Below, one piece after another: positions 1 to 13,922 of a stretch of 64,000 nucleotides of DNA. A program made the position numbers and the translations under genes. The notes under the pieces are model-generated. The model was not told the DNA's origin. It ran no database searches and saw nothing but the letters and a program-made list of their open reading frames with translations. This stretch comes from Endomicrobiales bacterium (lineage in GTDB: Bacteria > Elusimicrobiota > Endomicrobiia > Endomicrobiales > CAWCFT01), in assembly GCA_963794945.1 (NCBI GenBank), contig CAWCFT010000004.1, forward strand, positions 64,001-128,000, written 5' to 3'. Numbering within the stretch: position 1 is the stretch's first letter; each line of letters begins with the position of its first letter.

Positions 1-404
1 ACGATAAACGGCAGCGCGTGCGGGTGCACCGGGTTGATCTTTCCGAAAATTGCCCGCCACTTACCCAGCCTCACGCCTATGCCGTCAGGAAGCCCCTTGA
101 AAATGGTCATGTACGCTTCCTCTACGCTGATATTTGTGGTCCCGCTGCTTGAATCAATTGAAAATACGAACACGCCTTTGGCGTAGGGGTTGAGGTAGGT
201 GTCGCACTGTATCTCGGTCTCGCCCATACCCAGAGTGGTCTTGCCGGCGTTGCCCGTGGTCGCGTCATCGGTATTCTCCCCGACTATCTGCCCGATAACC
301 GATATGTTCGGGTTGACGGGCCCGGCGTACGAAACAGTTGCGGAAAGCATGCCGCATATAAAAAATAGTATAAATATAGATCGCGTAAATCTGTTTATCA
401 TCAT
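1..404 (-). CDS. Outer-membrane beta-barrel, zinc-regulated TonB-dependent receptor-like family (5' part; runs off the window)
   Basis: Not in ORF track; manual translation from ATG at 404 (AGGAGA RBS): MMINRFTRSIFILFFICGMLSATVSYAGPVNPNISVIGQ...YLNPYAKG...VEEAY...GKWRAIFGKINPVHPHALPFI; signal peptide and NPxISVIG/EEAY/HPH motifs. Confidence 0.75.
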   Translation of the reverse strand, partial: MMINRFTRSIFILFFICGMLSATVSYAGPVNPNISVIGQIVGENTDDATTGNAGKTTLGMGETEIQCDTYLNPYAKGVFVFSIDSSSGTTNISVEEAYMTIFKGLPDGIGVRLGKWRAIFGKINPVHPHALPFI

Positions 405-459
405 ATTCTCCTGAAGAAAGGTAATTGAAAATTATAACGGGAAAATGGACTGAAGTATG

Positions 460-738
460 TCAGCAGGCGGCCGGAGGGCTGCGAAGTTGAAGGTTATCCT
501 TGAGAAATTGCTGAACCTGAGGTTTGCCGATAACCAGGATTATGAACAGAACAAAAAGCAAATGAGCTATGGCAGTAACATTATAAATGAAAGGCTGATT
601 AGATACAGCGCAGATCGGGCAATCGTCATGTGCGATATTACCGGAATGCTGGTGAAAAGGTATAACGACGCAAAAAAACAGGATTATATAGAGACCGATC
701 AACCAGCTTAATGGTTTAAAGCATTTGGACAAATTCAT
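460..738 (-). CDS. DUF2946/CruR/CutF-like metal-sensing leader protein (HxH, CxxC, C-terminal RSPP)
   Basis: Hydrophobic N-terminus, HQH..HDDCPIC, ends LRSPPAAC; paralog at 5191-5469; directly upstream of an OM receptor. Confidence 0.8.
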   Translation of the reverse strand: MNLSKCFKPLSWLIGLYIILFFCVVIPFHQHSGNIAHDDCPICAVSNQPFIYNVTAIAHLLFVLFIILVIGKPQVQQFLKDNLQLRSPPAAC

Positions 739-746
739 TGACTTTT

Positions 747-775
747 GTTATACAATTTTATTATAAAAATGTCAA
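747..775 (-). promoter_or_regulatory. Sigma70-type promoter of leader ORF 1
   Basis: TTGACA (775-770) - 17 bp - TATAAC (752-747), 8 nt before ATG at 738; no SD. Confidence 0.65.
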
Positions 776-875
776 TGAAATGGTTTGATAATGCCCGTAG
801 TGTGGTTTGCTATTCAAGCTCTGGTTAGCGCATTGCAGGCAGATACAGGCAAGGCCTGCTATGCTCGTAAGCCTC

Positions 876-1502
876 TTATTGTTCCAACTTGAATTGTATT
901 GCCTGCCGTATTTTTACCGGAACCCGTTCGGGCCCTAAGTATGCCGGGGTATAACGAAGCAATTTAGCAGCTCTCTGCGCAGCCTGGTCAAATGCAATAC
1001 CTGCTGACTGCACTATGTCAACCGATGTTATTTTGCCATCTGCATCCAGGTGGAGATCCATTACAACTGTGCCCTCACGACCCGCATCGCGTTCTTGTTC
1101 CGGGTAAAGCCTCTGCATTATCCTGTCAAGGTCAGCGAGGTTTAAGAGCTGAGGCAGTCTAGTTATAAGATTGAGCCCGACTTCGCCGGTACCACTTGAC
1201 GGCTGGTTATCTTCCACCTGCGGTTGTGGCTGCGTGGGTTGAGGTGTATATGGCTTTACCTGGTCAGGTGTCGGTTGAACCCAGGTCCTGGGCTTAGCCG
1301 CCGGTTTTGCAGCAGGCGGCTCGCTTGTGGTGCGCCGGACAGCGTTGGTAAGGTCAATTTCGACCGTTCGTTTCGCCACGTGAGGGAGCTTTACGTTCTT
1401 TAAGCTGAATACAGCAAGATGAACACATAATGAAAGAACAAGCATACCCCATAGTATGGAGTCTTCATGCTGCCATAAATTGAAAGGTAACCTGTATCTC
1501 AT
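876..1502 (-). CDS. tonB: Energy transducer TonB
   Basis: N-terminal TM with SLCVH, Pro/Gln-rich linker, YP...GREGTV TonB_C domain. Confidence 0.9.
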   Translation of the reverse strand: MRYRLPFNLWQHEDSILWGMLVLSLCVHLAVFSLKNVKLPHVAKRTVEIDLTNAVRRTTSEPPAAKPAAKPRTWVQPTPDQVKPYTPQPTQPQPQVEDNQPSSGTGEVGLNLITRLPQLLNLADLDRIMQRLYPEQERDAGREGTVVMDLHLDADGKITSVDIVQSAGIAFDQAAQRAAKLLRYTPAYLGPERVPVKIRQAIQFKLEQ

Positions 1503-1912
1503 GACTTGAATTTAGCCTCCACTTCCGTTGCCACATGGGTTATGCCCGCGCCTCTGATAGTATCAAGGACGCCCGCCACATCCCCCCAGGAAACCCGCTC
1601 ATCCGCCCCCAGCGTAACATGAAGGCCGGCATCCATACGGGCCATCTGGCTTAAGTTGACGGTCAGTTCTTGAATGGTAACCTTTGTTTCATTCAACACG
1701 AGAGTCTTGTCCGCTTTCAAAATAACGTGAACGCTCTGGGTGGGCGTCTCCTGCGAATTGGCGACTTTAGGCAGGTTCAAATTGATCGAGCGGTGAGCGA
1801 TCAAATGAGCCGTTGCCATAAATATTATGAGAAGCACCAGAACGATATCCACCAGCGGCGTTACGTTAATTCCGGTTATCATACCGTTGCCGGATTGATT
1901 TGTTGAAGCCAT
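1499..1912 (-). CDS. exbD: Biopolymer transport protein ExbD
   Basis: INVTPLVDIVLVLLIIFM signature. Confidence 0.92.
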   Translation of the reverse strand: MASTNQSGNGMITGINVTPLVDIVLVLLIIFMATAHLIAHRSINLNLPKVANSQETPTQSVHVILKADKTLVLNETKVTIQELTVNLSQMARMDAGLHVTLGADERVSWGDVAGVLDTIRGAGITHVATEVEAKFKS

Positions 1913-1914
1913 GA

Positions 1915-2547
1915 TTAGTTCACCCCCATGAACATAATGACTTTCTTGCCGAAATGGTCGGCGTCATTTATAAGATCATTGATCTTTTTCTGCAAGAAAT
2001 TATAAGAGGCCACGCAGGGCAGAGCGACCACGATGCCAAGCGCTGTCGCTATAAGCGCGTCCGCAAGGCCCGCCATAACCACTTCCGGGCCCTGACCGCT
2101 GTAAATCGCCAGGTTCTGGAAGGCATGGATAACTCCCAGCACTGTGCCCAATAAGCCGATGAAGGGCCCGTTGTTGCCCAAAGTTCCAAGAACCACTAAA
2201 CGCTTCTCGAGCCGCCTTCTTTGAAGATTCAACTGCACTTCCAGCCTTTCCTGAAGGATATCCTTGCCTTGAGTTCTGTGTTGCAAAAGATCCTCAACGA
2301 TAGCGCAAAGTACCGAGTTTGGTTTTAACCCCTTAACGGTTTCGTCAATGCTCCCGGGGGCAAGTTTATCATCAATTTCAGGAAGCGTTTTGTTTTGATA
2401 AGACGAATGCCCGATCACGATGATCATGCGCTCGAGGATCACGGCGAACGCTATTATCGAACATAGTACCAGCAGGTAAATAACGTACGTTCCGCTTACG
2501 GCGATGACAGACTGCAATGCTTGTAAATGTTGTCCCATTCCCATCAT
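1915..2547 (-). CDS. exbB: MotA/TolQ/ExbB proton channel
   Basis: GPFIGLLGTVLG and ALIATALG motifs; adjacent to exbD and tonB. Confidence 0.92.
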   Translation of the reverse strand: MMGMGQHLQALQSVIAVSGTYVIYLLVLCSIIAFAVILERMIIVIGHSSYQNKTLPEIDDKLAPGSIDETVKGLKPNSVLCAIVEDLLQHRTQGKDILQERLEVQLNLQRRRLEKRLVVLGTLGNNGPFIGLLGTVLGVIHAFQNLAIYSGQGPEVVMAGLADALIATALGIVVALPCVASYNFLQKKINDLINDADHFGKKVIMFMGVN

Positions 2548-2587
2548 ATATTTTCTCCTTAAAATTAAATCAACTATTAGAATAAGG

Positions 2588-2673
2588 TGTCATTGCGAGG
2601 AGCTGTCCCGAAGCAATCTAGTTTTTCGTAGTAACACCAAGATTGCCGCGTCGCTCCGCTCCTCGCAATGACA
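2588..2673. repeat. 86-bp palindromic REP/RPE-like element
   Basis: Perfect 16-bp inverted repeats TGTCATTGCGAGGAGC / GCTCCTCGCAATGACA plus inner GCAATCT/AGATTGC stem. Confidence 0.8.
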
Positions 2674-2679
2674 GACCTT

Positions 2680-5042
2680 TTAGCTTCCAAACGGAACCGA
2701 GACTTTCACGTACATGTTCCGTCCCGGGTCGCCGATATTGAACTCCTTTAAAATGCTGTTGAAATCAATGTAACTTACGTCGAACAGGTTATTGACTCCA
2801 GCGTCCACAGCGATCCGGCTTCCCATGACCACGAGTTCCCCTCCCAGCTGCAGGTTTGTCAGGCTGTAGCCCGGGGTCGGTATATCCGTGCCGAACGTGA
2901 GGTTCTGTGCCGACGTAACTTTTTCGTCAACGCCGAAGTAAGGATGCGACACAAAACCCAGCGACTTCGTGTGGAAGTTCGCTCCGATCAGCCAGTTATC
3001 CGCGGGCACGTGCGGCAAATTGCTTGTTGGATACGGTGAGTTATTAGCCTCGTCGTTGTCGCCGCGCACCATGTTGTATACCGCGTTGAAGGTGAGCCAA
3101 TCCGTCGCCGCGAAGTTAACAGCGCCATCGATTCCCTTGACTGTAGCATTGGTCTGAATTGTTTGTACCACGGGTATCGATTGATCGGTAGAAGTCAGCC
3201 GGCGGCTTTTCACCCGGTGAAAGCGCTGGTAATGTAATTGTGAATGTCGTTATTGAACACACCCACCTCGCCCTTGATACGCTTTGAAGCCCAGCGCAGG
3301 GAGACCTCAGAATTTAGTGACGTCTCGGGCTGAAGGTTTGGGTCGCCAATCTCGAAGGTGCCGGTTCCCTCATGCTTTCCATAGGCAAAGAGCTCAAAAG
3401 GGACGGGGTTCCTGAACCCCTGGCCTACGTTGACTACGAAGGCGAACGGGTCGGAAACGTGATACACGCCACCCACCGCGCCGACTACCGCGGAATAATC
3501 CCGTGTCTGTGCAGCGACCGGGTGAGCGTCGCCGGCGCCCATACCGTTGCTGAAGTCTATGCCAATCATGCCGTCATGCTGAATGTTGTATTGGGCCTGG
3601 TCGCCGCGGACGCCGAACGTAAAGTCAAACTTGCCCGTTGTGACGTCTTCTACTGCGAATGCCCCGAGGCTTCCTTCGTCATAAGACGGCGTGAGATGCA
3701 CTATACCCACCGACTGGTCCGTTCTTCCTAGAACTGAAACCCCTACCGTTCCCTGAAATGCTCCCATTGGCGCAAGGTGCGCCTTGACGTCGAGCGTATT
3801 ACTTTGCTCTATCCAGTTAAGGTGCGGAGCGGGCGGCGGAACAACGTTCGGGCTGTTGCCGTTCGAGTCGGGATGGGTGTCATCCACGTCAGGCGAATCG
3901 TACTCCTTGCGGTCGCACAGGTCATAACCGGCCGTGATGTCGAAGCGGGCGGGCCCGGTATTTATATCCGCTTTTACAACCCCATGCTCGTGATGCAAGT
4001 CCTGAAACTCGGAATCACTTAGATTGTCCCGCGGAGGAAATGGCAATGTTGGATTTTGAAGCTCCACTCGCTTGTTGAACACGGCGTACGAAGCGGTTAA
4101 GCCTCCCCAGTCCTTGCGAAACCCTGCTTCCGCGCTTCCGTTGACCTGGTTCTCGCCGGTGTTCGGCACTTCTCCTATCTTAGGCGTGTAAAAATTCCCT
4201 GCCTGCATCTGGGAGAGGTTTGCCCGGTAACCCCAGCAGCCCGTGGCACCCGAAACCTCGAAGTTCTCTCCAACAGAGTTGTTGTTCGAGTTCGTTATAG
4301 CAGAGAACCTTCCGCGCAGGGGGCCGTCTCCCAGGTTCGCGTCCGGTAGCTCCGGATGGCTGATGGAAATGACCCCGGCGATAGCGTCGGAACCGTAAAG
4401 GAGGCTGTTAGGCCCCCTCATGACCTCTATGCGGTCCGTGCCGAGGGGATCGATTTCCGGCGCGTGCTCACTGCCCCACTGCTCAGACTCACTGCGAACC
4501 CCGTCTTCAACGATGACTATCTCCTGAGAATTTAGGCCGCGGATGATGGGCTTAACTACGGTGTCACCCTCGCCTATCATGCTGACGCCCGGTTCGTTCT
4601 GGATAGCGGAAGCGATGCTCTCGCCCCGCTCGCGGTCCATTTGGCGGCCTTCAACCACGCTCACCGAGGCGGGCGTGTTAAGGGTGCTCTTCGCCGCGGC
4701 CGAAGCGGTGATCGTGATGGGCGTCATCGCTATAGGCGAACTGCCCAGTTCGGCGTTGACGGTAAGGTCTTCTTCCTTAACGGTGATCTGGCGAATTTCA
4801 TCGGCAAAACCGATTCGCCGGAATTCCAGGGCGTAATTGCCCGGGGAAATGTTATCTATCCTGTAAACGCCGGAAGCGTCGGTTTGGACGCCTTTCTGAA
4901 TGCCGGGGATAACAACCTGCGCGCTGCCAACCGCGTTCCCTGAAGGATCGGTGACTTTACCTGAAATGGACGCCGCGTAAGCGGCTCCGCTTGTAGTTAT
5001 AAAAAGTATAAAAACAACTATGGCTTTAAATATAAGTAGCAT
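2680..5042 (-). CDS. TonB-dependent receptor (split by a frameshift near 3210)
   Basis: Signal peptide, carboxypeptidase-regulatory-like N-domain, plug (RIEVMRGPNSLLYGSDAIAGVI), NLQPETS, C-terminal GVNNLFD...PGRN barrel end in the second ORF. Confidence 0.9.
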
Positions 5043-5190
5043 AATTTACTCCTTGATTAAATTATAAATAATAATTGTTCGCCATCAATTTAATGGATGC
5101 CTGATATAAAGCAACACAATTAATGAATGGCGGCGCAACTGCGCAGTGATGCCCAGTTACCTTGTTATTGAATTGTAAATATGCAGGAAG

Positions 5191-5469
5191 TTAAGCGGCA
5201 GGAGGGCCGCGAAGGTGAAGAGTTGCCTTGAGGAAGAATTGTACTTGAGGTTTGCTAAGAACTAAAATTATAAAGAGGACAAAAAGCAAATGAATGATAG
5301 CGGTGATATTAGAAATGAACGGCTGGCTGGAAACAGCGCATATCGCGCAATCGTCATGGGAATCGAAATCGCCGTGATGGTGCAGCGGTATTATGATCGC
5401 GAAAAGCAATGTCAGGTAAACTATCGCGATATAACCTATCAGCTTAGACACAACACGAATCTTATTCAT
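5191..5469 (-). CDS. DUF2946/CruR/CutF-like metal-sensing leader protein (HHH, CxxC, C-terminal RGPP)
   Basis: HHHGDFDSHDDCAIC, ends LRGPPAA; paralog of 460-738; upstream of the TonB-dependent receptor. Confidence 0.82.
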   Translation of the reverse strand: MNKIRVVSKLIGYIAIVYLTLLFAIIIPLHHHGDFDSHDDCAICAVSSQPFISNITAIIHLLFVLFIILVLSKPQVQFFLKATLHLRGPPAA

Positions 5470-5480
5470 ATTACACTACT

Positions 5481-5509
5481 TTTATACATTATCCTTATTT
5501 AAAAGTCAA
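5481..5509 (-). promoter_or_regulatory. Sigma70-type promoter of leader ORF 2
   Basis: TTGACT (5509-5504) - 17 bp - TATAAA (5486-5481), 11 nt before ATG at 5469; no SD. Confidence 0.6.
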
Positions 5510-6850
5510 CTGTGCCCGCGTTCCAACAAAACTACTGTTTCAATGTGGTAAGTTTGAGGGAACATGTCTACCGGTATTATCTTTACGGCCTTGTACCCGC
5601 CTTTTTGCGATATATCCGCAAGGTCGCGGGCCAGTGTAGCCGGATTACAGGAGACATAAACTATTTTTTCCGGCAGGCATTTTACGACAAAATCTATCAC
5701 CTTGGCCGAGAGGCCGCCCCGGGGAGGGTCAAGCACTATAACGCTGAAATCCGTCGGCACCATGCCCTTGACCCATTTCTCGAGAGTGCCAGCTTCGAAT
5801 GATATATTCTCCACGTTATTGATCTTCTTGTTGACCAGGGCGTTCTCTATCGCCTGCTCAACCTGCTCGACGCCTAGGACCTTTTTAACGTACGGCGCGA
5901 TGACTATGCCTATTGTACCCGTCCCGCAGTAAAGGTCAAGCACGGAATCCGTGTTTTTGAAATTTCCGAGCTCAATGACAGTCTCGTATAGTTTCTCCGT
6001 TCCCAGCGTGTTGGTCTGGAAGAAGGAAAAAGGAGATATCGAAAAAACATAACGCCTGCCTTTAATTTCAAGGGACTCTTCGATGGTCTCGGAACCGTAA
6101 AGGAGCCTCACTTCTTCGGCCCTTACGGCGTCCGAAACGCTGCCGTTTATGGTCAAGTGAAATGATGTTATCTTATCTTTAAGTGAGTTTACAAGCGGGT
6201 CAAATAACCCGGCCGGGAAATTCCGGCTGCTTACCACAAGGTTTACCAGCAGCTGGCCTGTCCTTACGCCTTTCCGCAATACCAGGTGGCGATAGAACCC
6301 CTCGTGTGAGCGTTTGTCGTAAACCGAAAGCCCTGAACACCGCGCGAACTCCTTTATTTTTTCAGTCACCAACAAAAAATCGTCTCCGCAGATAAGGCAC
6401 GGCGGAACAGGGAAATACCTGTTGAACTCGTTTTTTTCGTGGAGCCCGATATCAGGGCTGGCGTCCCTGGCGAAAAAGAAGCTAAATTCCATTTTATTTC
6501 GGTAGTTCCAGGCGGTTGGGCTCTTAACACAAGGGGTAGTGATCGGGCAGAATTTTTCGAGCAGCTCTTTTACATAGCCTTCCTTGATCCTGACCTGGTT
6601 ATCGTAACCGGTATGCTGAAAACTGCACCCGCCGCATTTCCCGAACGACGGGCACTTAGGCGCGGTGCGTTCAGAACGACGGAGTTACGATCTCAACCAG
6701 CTTCGCCTCTTTGAACGTTTTCTTGCTCTTCGTGACAGCGACTTCTGCGGTCTCGCCAGCGAGAGCGCCTTCGGTGAACGTGGCAATGCCGTCGTCACCT
6801 CTGCCGAGGGCTTTTCCGGGATAAACTACTTTTTCTATCTTGATTTTCAT
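5506..6850 (-). CDS. rlmD: 23S rRNA (uracil1939-C5)-methyltransferase (frameshift near 6672)
   Basis: TRAM-like N-terminus from ATG 6850, CPSFGKCGGC, SFFQTN, DLYCGTG, DPPR, YVSCNP, DMFPQTYHIE. Confidence 0.9.
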
Positions 6851-8479
6851 TAGTGGGCCGAGACGGGTATGTTGATGATGAACGAAGAGCCTTCTTTAGG
6901 CGTGCTTTTTACGTGGATCTTCCCGTTATGCTGTTCAAGTATACCGTATGAAATGCTGAGGCCAAGGCCGATATTCTTTTTTGGGTCCTTGGTTGTAAAG
7001 AACGGCATGAATATCTTGTCGACGATCCTTGAATCTATCCCGGCGCCATTATCGTTGACTTCAACATAAACCTGTCCTTCAGCGGACGATGTTCTTATGG
7101 TTACGATCTTTTCGGTTTGGCTTCGTTCTTCTTGTGAATTAAATGACTGCTGCGCGTTTACGAACAGGTTAAGCAGAACCTGTTTTATCTGGTTAAAATC
7201 TATCTTTGTCGCGGGCAGGTCCGGCATAAGTTCCTTGACAACGCGTATGTTATCGTTCTGGAACTCGTATTCCACCAGCTCCAGCGCTTCTTCGACGGCC
7301 TGATTGATATCTGCATCGGCCAGCTGCGCCTTGTGGTACGATGAAAACACTTTGAGGTTATTGATGACTTCCCTGCACCGCTCTGACCCTTCCTTTATCC
7401 TGAGCAGCATCTTTTATATCAGCGGGAAGCGTCTTTTTTTTCAATATTTTTTCAGCCTGGGAACTTACCTGCTCTATCGGGGCGTTCAGCTGATTTACAA
7501 GGCTCGTGGCAACCTGCCCAACAGCCGACATCTTTTCGACAAGCACAACCTGCCTTCTCGACTGTTCCAGCTGCCTGTGAGCATTCTCGAGTTCCGATAT
7601 CTTTATTTCCAGTTTCTCATAAAGCTTTGTATTATCAATTGATTGAGCTATCTGGGAAACGAATATCGACAGGTTCCTTATGTCCGAAACGCTGAACTCG
7701 GAATGGTTCTTCGTTCTGGATACCATAAGGATACCAAGATTTTTGTTCTTTATCTTTATGGGGTAAGTTGCCAGCGATTTCATTTCGGAGTCAAGGAATA
7801 ACCCTTTCATTGCCGGGTTATCCGATAACGGGTGTTTGAAGATCACCGGCGAATCATTCATCTGCCCGGATGAATAAAGCCTTTCGGCGAGGCTGGTGAA
7901 CGACCCCTGATAAGGGTAATAAACAAGCGAGAACGACGCCGCGGCGAGGTACAGTTGTTCCTGGTGGTCAAACAATAAAAGCGCTATCTCATCGGCCCTG
8001 ATGACGTTCTTTAGTAGATTGATCATTATAGGGAAGAGTTTTTCCAGCTTGAGGCTCGAGAATATAGCCTTGCTGCTTTCGTACAGCGCGATTAGGGTTT
8101 TAAGTTCGCTTTTTTCAAGCGCTTTTTCAAGGAGGGCTATTACTTCGTCTATGTTGAAAGGTTTCTGTATGAAATCGTACGCGCCGTTCTTCATGGCTTC
8201 TACGGCGTTCTCAACAGTGGCGTAACCGGTTATCATTATAACTTCAGTCTCGGGCGAGACTTTTTTTACCGTATCAAGGACCTCAAGGCCGTCATGTTTT
8301 GGCATCTTGATGTTTGTTATGACAACGTCGTATTTTTCGGACTGTATCTTTGATATTGCTTCCTCGCCGTTCGACGCGGTATCTATGGTGTGGCCTAGTT
8401 TTGCAAGCTCTATCGTTAGCAGTTCGCGTATCCCCTGTTCGTCATCAACAATAAGGATCCTTGATTTTGGTGCCGCCAT
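6850..8479 (-). CDS. REC-GAF-histidine-kinase-like protein with degenerate phosphosites (frameshift near 7400)
   Basis: REC N-terminus, GAF, HATPase in ORF 6850-7410; close paralog of 24275-25912. Confidence 0.85.
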
Positions 8480-13150: not shown

Positions 13151-13922
13151 TTACAGGTATTTTAACAGCTCAGCGTACTGGGTGCCGCCGGTTATCTCCA
13201 GGAAGACATCTTCAAGGTTGCCGCCGTTCTTTTCCTTCTGCTTAAGTTCGCTGACACTTTCGAGCGCAATGATCTTGCCGCGATGGATAATACCAGCGCG
13301 GGAGGCTAGTTTCTCGGCTATTTCAAGCACATGTGTACACATGAATATCGCTACACCCCTGCTGGATAGTTCACAGAATATCTCTTTAACGAGCCTCGCG
13401 CTTTTCGGGTCGAGCCCCACAAGCGGCTCATCTAAGAACAAGGCCGTCGGGCTGTGCAGGAGAACGCTCGCGAGCACGAGCTTCTGCCTCATGCCGTGAG
13501 AATATGATTCTGTTGTCTCATCGGCCCACTTGGAAAGCTCGAACATCTCAAGCAGCTCCGGTATTTTATCTCTCTGGTAGGCCGGGTCAACCGAGTAAAT
13601 ATCCCCCACAAAACGCATGAATTCCAAGCCCGTAAGGTAAGGATATACAAAAGGCTGGTCCGAAACGTAACCCATAGACTGCTTGGCCTTGAGCGGTTCC
13701 TTAAGTATATCGAAGCCATTGATATACGCGGTTCCGGAAGTAGGGATGCAGCAGCCCGGACATAAGCTTTACGGTCGTGGTCTTGCCGGCGCCGTTAGGC
13801 CCGAGAAAAGCGAATATCTCCCCGGGGGCTATCTCGAAGTTAAGGCCGTCAACGGCCGTAAAATCACCGAATTTTTTGGTGAGCCCTTCTGATCTTATTG
13901 CGTAAGGTTTTATGATATCCAT
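13151..13922 (-). CDS. ABC transporter ATP-binding protein (frameshift near 13740)
   Basis: GPNGAGKTT in 5' ORF; YSHGMRQK, FLDEP, CTH in 3' ORF. Confidence 0.9.

Follow-up and report, generated by a model that had tools for sequence, protein, structure and literature searches.

In this study, we analysed a 64,000-nucleotide (nt) stretch of an Endomicrobiales genome (assembly GCA_963794945.1, contig CAWCFT010000004.1, positions 64,001 to 128,000), referred to here as the window, at the beginning of which two paralogous small open reading frames (ORFs), leader A and leader B, stand in front of genes for different outer-membrane barrels. In transcribed order, the locus comprises a promoter, leader A, a gap, a TonB-dependent receptor gene, exbB, exbD, tonB, a second promoter, leader B, a further gap, a barrel gene, znuA, znuB, and a phosphatase-like gene (Table 1). 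An earlier interpretation made from the letters alone (the sequence-only reading) had described two paralogous ORFs of 92 amino acids (aa) as metal-sensing ribosome-arrest leaders of two uptake units. Both ORFs are present with the motifs described, at a mutual identity of 61% across 84 aa (E = 2e-36), and Pfam searches confirmed the order TonB receptor, exbB, exbD, tonB. The second target, which had been taken for a zinc-receptor-like barrel, is instead predicted to be a plug-less porin, followed by znuA and znuB.

Table 1. Features of the two leader-headed units. Positions are those of the window unless prefixed by L001; SD, Shine-Dalgarno sequence.
Feature	Position	Strand	Remarks
Leader A promoter, predicted sigma-70	5481..5509	minus	TTGACT (5509-5504), 17 nt, extended TG-TATAAA (5486-5481); 10/12
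Leader A	5191..5469	minus	92 aa; ends R87-G-P-P90, two residues, stop
Leader A predicted metal-site codons (H30, H32, H38, C41, C44)	5338..5382	minus	predicted from conservation
Leader A RGPP arrest-motif codons	5200..5211	minus	CGC GGC CCT CCT; motif known from PMC12992588
Leader A-receptor gap	5043..5190	minus	148 nt; two hairpins; SD AAGGAG
TonB-dependent receptor	2680..5042	minus	N-domain carboxypeptidase-like, then plug and barrel; broken by two frame shifts into 3210-5042 and 2680-3213
exbB	1915..2547	minus	PF01618
exbD	1499..1912	minus	PF02472
tonB	876..1502	minus	PF03544
Leader B promoter, predicted sigma-70	747..775	minus	TTGACA (775-770), 17 nt, extended TG-TATAAC (752-747); 11/12
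Leader B	460..738	minus	92 aa; ends R86-S-P-P89, three residues, stop
Leader B RSPP arrest-motif codons	472..483	minus	CGC AGC CCT CCG
Leader B-porin gap	405..459	minus	55 nt; C-rich, G-poor, rut-like; SD CAGGAG
Porin-type barrel, 5′ part	1..404	minus	362 aa, predicted plug-less; whole gene L001:11316-12404, past window start
znuA	L001:10377-11252		before window start
znuB	L001:9375-10271		before window start

The two leaders follow one plan. An N-terminal export signal or transmembrane segment is predicted in both (19-residue hydropathy 2.5; hydrophobic helix at about residues 10-28 of leader A), followed by a cluster of His and Cys residues (H30/H32/H38 with C41-x-x-C44 in leader A, H29/H31/H37 with C40-x-x-C43 in leader B), a second hydrophobic helix (about residues 55-71 of leader A), and an RxPP motif close to the stop. 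The corresponding strings are PFHQH..HDDCPIC and PLHHH..HDDCAIC, HLLFVLFIILV, and LRSPP(AAC) and LRGPP(AA). AlphaFold2 placed helices of leader A at residues 3-29, 42-47, and 55-71, and a fold search with the leader model gave no match. In both twins, 42 residues lie between the CxxC and the Arg, and the second hydrophobic stretch stops 15 residues ahead of the Arg. As the ribosome exit tunnel holds about 30-35 residues, at arrest the second helix would be mostly inside the ribosome and the CxxC just beyond it. The genome (2.9 Mb) contains just three small ORFs that end in R[ASGP]PP; of these, the twins alone have an appropriately spaced CxxC, and their combination of motifs exceeds chance. 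Profile searches of the genome revealed no third leader copy. The nonsynonymous and synonymous divergences of the twins (dN 0.32, dS 2.07) indicate that selection acts on the leader protein.

Searching 401 Elusimicrobiota genomes with a 13-sequence leader profile gave 31 places in 29 genomes, from which one without such an ORF (G289, E = 7e-4), one decayed leader (G037), and one frameshifted leader at a contig end (G014) were dropped, leaving 28 intact leaders in 26 genomes. All 28 precede outer-membrane barrels, comprising 23 porins and five TonB receptors, so the link to metal-uptake genes proposed by the sequence-only reading holds across the phylum. By inspection, a ZnuA-type gene comes next at 22 of the 23 porin loci (the contig ends at the remaining one), and exbB follows at four of the five receptor loci. 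In the reverse direction, among the 104 genomes of the order, a leader stands at 10 of 10 full-length porin orthologues, with two further partial hits at contig ends, and at none of six distant porins in ammonium-transporter loci. These distant porins (L102-L107) adjoin genes that we take to encode an ammonium transporter and a GlnK-like protein. Compared with G022, G037 has lost the porin-znuA-znuB block, and what is left, directly upstream of panB, is a decayed, frameshifted leader (L007:1466-1700 / L087).

The finding that 28 of 28 targets are exported outer-membrane barrels would also suit an arrest leader responsive to disulfide formation or to pulling by Sec or YidC, that is, a redox or secretion monitor for outer-membrane export to which metal is irrelevant, and a disulfide model has been put forward for the CutF leader of Rhodobacter capsulatus (bioRxiv 10.1101/2025.02.05.636593). 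We consider such a monitor very unlikely, given the invariant HxH beside the CxxC and the related porins in non-metal (Amt) operons, which carry no leader (0/6).

The twin arrangement is not confined to the window, since G004 likewise holds two leaders, one per unit. In a tree of the 28 leaders, most branches of which are weak, the window twins are sisters (98/83), in agreement with the proposed duplication, which is lineage-specific. The receptor leaders are scattered over the tree (five changes against 4.7 in shuffles), which suggests several separate copying events for the module. A division into tiers, with RGPP marking receptor units and RSPP porin units, was rejected: two other receptor leaders carry RSPP and one RAPP, with no clustering. 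In G061 (L071), the leader precedes a different TonB receptor across a gap of 270-279 nt that has no SD, and a TATAAT lies just ahead of the receptor ATG.

The putative metal site and the arrest motif are the conserved parts of the leader. H30, H32, C41, C44, and P89 are invariant in 141/141 aligned sequences, whose mean identity is 21%, and R87 and P90 are kept in at least 90% of them. The core motif among the best 150 relatives is RAPP in 86, RSPP in 33, RGPP in 17, and RPPP in seven, and is absent from seven; the distance from the first Cys to the Arg is 45-51 in 143/143 wider relatives (41-47 intervening residues) and 46-49 in 28/28 phylum leaders (42-45 intervening residues), the counts for the best 150 being partly circular, because these were chosen by a profile holding the same motifs. 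A second hydrophobic segment (hydropathy at least 2.0) occurs in 16/28 phylum leaders and 96/143 wider relatives; it is thus common but optional, and was rejected as a defining novelty of the twins. Neither this segment nor RSPP, which is also a published, partly permissive arrest variant (PMC12992588), is as unusual as had been supposed.

The DUF2946 membership suggested by the sequence-only reading did not stand as a direct match, although a remote kinship did. Neither leader matches PF11162 (DUF2946) at E ≤ 1, the genome gave no match to this family, and only one of 13 close leader relatives has one (E = 0.54). Other direct family assignments in Pfam and NCBIfam were also rejected, with no meaningful match and weak ones to DUF6769 and DUF2607. 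Among the 150 profile relatives, 65 match PF11162 at E ≤ 0.05, over model positions of about 50-117 only, and five are at or over its gathering cut-off, although the shared motifs may inflate these matches; PF11162 is also found in 54% of the members of one Atlas cluster at 0.91. The leaders are therefore best described as a remote DUF2946/CruR-like branch and not as PF11162 members. The leader profile retrieved 634 representatives at E ≤ 0.001 from 1.8 billion proteins. Look-alikes in the Atlas carry the labels Acidobacteriota, Fibrobacterota, and Pseudomonadota; the single non-Elusimicrobiota locus examined had no match to the wider leader profile, and a plasmid search gave one unannotated porin match.

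The architecture of export segment, CxxC, and C-terminal RxPP is, as had been noted, that of the CruR/CutF type. Like CruR of Bordetella pertussis (Bp2923, DUF2946/PF11162), the leaders are the first genes of uptake operons, ahead of a TonB receptor, and combine an export signal with a CxxC and an RxPP a few residues before the stop at a fixed distance from each other; a C>G stretch crosses their 3′ end, comparable with the C>G bubble of cruR, and the genome encodes Rho (PMC9426467). They differ from CruR in length (92 versus 145 aa), in the motif (RGPP/RSPP versus RAPP), in the intervening residues (42 versus 45), in the invariant HxH before the CxxC, in having no PF11162 match, in their zinc-type cargo, which includes a plug-less porin with ZnuA/B, in occurring as two copies in series, and in a predicted leaderless start in place of a 45-nt 5′-untranslated region (PMC9426467). 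Within the CruR family, the spacing varies by 1-2 residues; a change of minus 2 is tolerated and one of plus 5 breaks regulation (PMC9426467).

CutF shares with the leaders a small exported Cys/His protein with a proline-rich C-terminus and, as predicted for the twins, action in cis (PMC9973294; bioRxiv 10.1101/2025.02.05.636593), and an SD-masking hairpin is predicted for many relatives of the window leaders. CutF, however, carries CxxxC and PPP; it stalls in the presence of copper, and the gene that it switches on encodes a detoxifying oxidase. The cargo here serves uptake, so that metal is predicted to release the stall; moreover, the predicted anti-SD sequence of the relatives lies in the Pro codons and not in the gap, and is unsupported at the window loci. 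In ApcA, ApdA, and ApdP, too, an R-[AGSP]-P-P motif stands close to the C-terminal end of a small exported protein encoded upstream, but they monitor Sec or YidC (PMC12992588), and no sec or yidC gene is a leader target here (0/28).

Each leader is predicted to have its own promoter very close to its start codon. The distance from promoter end to ATG is 11 nt for leader A and 8 nt for leader B, and an SD is absent at both starts (-2.1 and +0.1 kcal/mol, respectively), so the transcripts are predicted to be near-leaderless (A) and leaderless (B). Both -10 boxes lack the final T, which is why the leader A promoter was left out of one promoter listing. Against controls drawn from this genome only, a promoter scoring at least 9/12 was found at 13/28 leaders, compared with 15/198 divergent first genes, 56/1530 long ORFs, and a shuffle mean of 0.8, whereas an SD was found at 1/28 leaders, compared with 96/198 divergent first genes and 667/1530 long ORFs. 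A short inverted repeat joining -35 and -10 overlaps each leader promoter (739-775 and 5478-5506) and is not evident in relatives; this could be an operator, or it could merely follow from the promoter sequence.

Downstream of the leaders, the features point to Rho. No intrinsic terminator is listed in either gap, and no Rfam RNA or riboswitch was found in 18 kb. The C>G skew around both leader stops is above that of all 474 control gaps; without the motif codons, the gaps are at the 81st (A) and 99th (B) percentile. The leader B gap itself has a C>G skew of 0.69 (99th percentile of the 474 control gaps) and is no more structured than shuffles (fold z -0.42). The 20 codons before the Arg are more C-rich than synonymous recodings of the twins (p = 0.018 and 0.044). 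An SD-masking hairpin at the window loci was rejected, the gain being 0.7/0.7 or -0.5/0.5 kcal/mol in a calculation confined to structures other than pseudoknots. At these loci, Rho is thus likelier than an SD hairpin as the off-switch, because Rho and the C>G stretch are present and an SD-blocking hairpin is unsupported at both. No conserved RNA structure was established in the receptor gaps, three of which barely align. The RGPP-AA codons of leader A (5195-5210) could fold into a hairpin of 5 bp with CCUCCU, a perfect anti-SD, as its entire loop; the hairpin is not conserved in relatives.

Many relatives probably possess a further lock, formed by pairing between the Pro-Pro codons and the SD of the next gene. 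Translational coupling of the CutF/SecM type, whereby the CCUCC of the Pro codons, when free of a stalled ribosome, pairs with the SD of the following gene, is compatible with a metal-released arrest, but as an explanation of the twins we find it doubtful. The first Pro codon is CCT in 19/28 leaders against 7.0 expected; a stalled footprint frees the downstream ribosome-binding site by at least 2 kcal/mol at 16/27 leader loci (G061 was excluded from the folding tests for want of an SD) and in 46/242 control gaps (242 of the 474 were computed); and long hairpins joining the SD to the Pro codons were found in five genomes (G025, G042, G252, G022, and G172), though related genomes are not independent in such counts. 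At the window loci, however, the gains do not exceed 0.7 kcal/mol, and the Pro-codon/SD duplexes (-8.0 and -7.7) are at the control median (-8.0). In the leader-swap test, from which G062 was excluded (gap over 180 nt), the family median was 2.1 for native leaders, not above that of swapped ones (2.2), and 1.8 for recoded ones; native leaders were above all controls in only 7/26 cases for the seven swaps and in 10/26 for the recoded set.

Gap A holds a promoter-like TTGATG-16-TATAAT (5088-5061, 10/12, 18 nt before the receptor ATG), a score reached by 95/2000 shuffles, and gap B a perfect -10 hexamer. Together with the two strong hydrophobic helices, these sites would fit a trans-acting role of the leader product as a small metal-binding membrane protein of two helices, a chaperone or accessory, with the downstream genes on other promoters. 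Such a protein, however, would need neither an invariant RxPP, avoided in the proteome, at a fixed distance nor a copy before each unit; the second helix is missing in 12/28 leaders, a 10/12 promoter-like site occurs in only 1/28 gaps, and the leader of G037 has decayed where its target genes are deleted. A role in trans therefore appears highly improbable.

The targets of the twins are probably of a zinc type. The window receptor is broken by two frame shifts at about 3207-3186 relative to an intact 785-aa orthologue, which is 81-87% identical; these are likely assembly indels, because several neighbouring genes are split too. Genes for RlmD, a histidine kinase, an ABC ATPase, and cbiM appear divided into consecutive ORFs (window 5506-6850, 6850-8479, and 13151-13922; L001:6153-6847), which suggests an indel-rich assembly. 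The best solved relative of the intact receptor orthologue is ZnuD (E = 9e-22), followed by heme receptors (E = 2e-15). The barrel behind leader B has no Pfam or NCBIfam match; its AlphaFold2 model, built with 22 homologues, is a confident all-strand barrel with no plug domain (pLDDT 88) that matches the porins OmpF/OmpC, DcaP, OprP, and MOMP (template modelling score about 0.5-0.6), and it is therefore predicted to be a porin rather than a receptor. Conserved in it are an internal HxH and, at the C-terminus, a GxHxxH tail. The znuA product has Synechocystis zinc ZnuA as its best solved relative (E = 1e-27), and in 18 aligned binding proteins, extracted out of 23, three His positions and a fourth in GDVHP are kept in 18, 18, 18, and 17/18. 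A His at the third ligand position marks zinc-type rather than manganese- or iron-type proteins; it is present in 17 of these 18, the remaining one being cut off.

No Fur-family match, and hence no Zur, was found in the genome, whose assembly is 86% complete, and such a match is missing from 8/28 leader-bearing genomes. One leader operon has a nearby Fur-family gene, for which PerR is the highest-scoring assignment. On contig C15 (G000:C15:13-3238, minus strand), nikR, a 618-aa TonB receptor gene, and a gene for a ZnuA-family binding protein without the His motifs form a probable nickel/cobalt uptake unit with no arrest leader. Copper chaperones or oxidases were not seen among the downstream genes inspected at the 28 loci, the targets being ZnuA/ZnuB and a ZnuD-like receptor, and the TonB-copper model is far below cut-off for the latter. 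The sequence-only reading, which had inclined to zinc, nickel, or cobalt rather than copper, is supported by this zinc-type and not copper-type context. Given the ZnuA-type binding protein, ZnuB, the ZnuD-like receptor, the lack of a Fur-family match, and the separate nikR operon, we place zinc as the sensed metal at a little over even odds.

With the sequences, their conservation, the spacing, and the gene linkage as direct observations, we estimate a probability of about 60% that the twins are cis-acting, metal-released arrest leaders of the CruR type, which keep uptake on while the metal, most likely zinc, is scarce. Judging from the promoter positions, each leader would have a promoter to itself, giving a near-leaderless mRNA on which translation begins at the 5′ end. 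The N-terminal hydrophobic helix would take the nascent chain to Sec, and the ribosome would stall at RGPP or RSPP, as the published motif suggests, with the second helix mostly in the tunnel and the HxH..CxxC just outside. By analogy with CruR, a stalled ribosome over the C-rich 3′ end would leave Rho unable to load, so that receptor-exbBD-tonB or porin-znuA-znuB is transcribed. Metal bound to H/H/(H)/C/C might then cause folding that pulls the chain, upon which the last two or three codons would be read, the ribosome would leave, and Rho would terminate transcription in the gap.

Several observations weigh against this interpretation. The spacing of 42 residues is three below the 45 of CruR, beyond the stated variation of 1-2; the CruR signal peptide is dispensable (PMC9426467), which makes the Sec step uncertain; RSPP is only partly permissive in ApdA/ApdP (PMC12992588); one relative has RSPT; and the leaders lack a direct DUF2946 match. 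Only 8/28 leaders are above their recoded controls at p < 0.05, so the C>G skew is partly a matter of amino-acid composition. The promoter-like site in gap A could drive the receptor independently, and the receptor may be a real pseudogene. As to the metal, the lead of ZnuD over the heme receptors is only modest, heme-receptor models rank first among the NCBIfam matches of the receptor (all below cut-off), 20 of the 27 other leader genomes do have Fur-family genes, and nickel-related neighbours occur in 4/26 leader genomes.

The last points raise the possibility that the same arrest switch answers to nickel/cobalt (or to iron or copper) instead of zinc. A NikM/CbiM-type energy-coupling factor transporter (M, PDGLE, Q, and O, with frame breaks; L001:3587-6847) lies 2.5 kb beyond znuB, and in G001 such a transporter is directly upstream of the leader; the genes downstream include those for NikR and CbiM in G079 and, in G119, one resembling a Ni/Co exporter. 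In addition, His-only CutF-like leaders adjoin HupE/UreJ nickel/cobalt genes (PMC9973294), and the heme-receptor ranking fits a metal other than zinc. Against nickel/cobalt stand the three-His ZnuA-type binding protein and the separate NikR-headed uptake operon, and against copper the downstream inventory given above; a different metal therefore seems unlikely to us.

A more extended scheme, which we hold only tentatively and at clearly less than even odds, joins these elements. The leaders would form a zinc-sensing translational switch replacing Zur in this bacterium, in which the mRNA is leaderless, the first ribosome is the sensor, and zinc-bound HxH..CxxC beyond the Sec channel releases the arrest; this portable module, duplicated in the lineage, would gate a TonB receptor and an unclassified His-tailed zinc porin with ZnuAB, and its Pro codons would double, phylum-wide, as an anti-SD or as part of Rho loading. 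A replacement of Zur in every host was rejected in view of the Fur-family genes in 20/27 other genomes.

Both the class of mechanism and similar gene pairs have already been published. The mechanism is established for copper in CruR and CutF (PMC9426467, PMC9973294), and similar leader-target pairs are in the 2025 supplement of a survey of RAPP/RGPP upstream ORFs (PMC12992588), whose downstream proteins, by size and label only, we infer to be the present porin family. In its main text, neither "zinc" nor "Elusimicrob" occurs, and no zinc test is described. CutF-like leaders have been reported in Bacteroidota (40%) and other phyla, with His-only clusters beside nickel/cobalt genes (PMC9973294), so that a non-proteobacterial host is not the peculiarity it had been thought to be; the protein list of that report, of whose supplement 8 kb of text was covered, may include the present leaders. 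A literature search, most subscription papers being outside its scope, found no report in which such a leader had been tested for a zinc response or a leaderless start. The contributions of the present locus are the pairing of two leaders, their predicted leaderless starts, and a host genome that yielded no Fur/Zur match.

Nascent-chain metal sensing has so far been demonstrated for copper only (CruR and CutF). If the twins respond to zinc, they would represent repressor-free control of zinc uptake in bacteria and would explain genomes that have zinc importers but no Zur. They also share one sensor while differing in arrest core and in cargo, and are short enough to be translated in vitro, a matched pair which makes the metal specificity of DUF2946-like leaders directly testable. 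Furthermore, the leaders single out a porin family, so far unclassified, as a candidate for a zinc channel independent of TonB.

The surroundings of the porin units vary. The porin-znuA-znuB unit of the present genome (L001:9375-12404) has no ZnuC-type ATPase gene, as is the case at most loci of the order, although one is present in G062, G111, G157, and G172. The frameshifted leader of G014 (L009:93-1763) has one frame shift at the contig end, and two genes upstream of it lies a gene presumably encoding a ZIP-like transporter. A dual-specificity/tyrosine-phosphatase-like gene (L001:8825-9373), not seen at related loci, begins directly after the znuB stop and is probably co-transcribed with znuB. 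At other loci (L069, L070, L072, and L078), znuB is followed by genes for a PerR-like regulator and a catalase-peroxidase-like protein (G003), by the exporter-like gene of G119, by ribonucleotide-reductase-like, MntR/DtxR, and FeoB-like genes (G191), or by the nikR and cbiM genes of G079.

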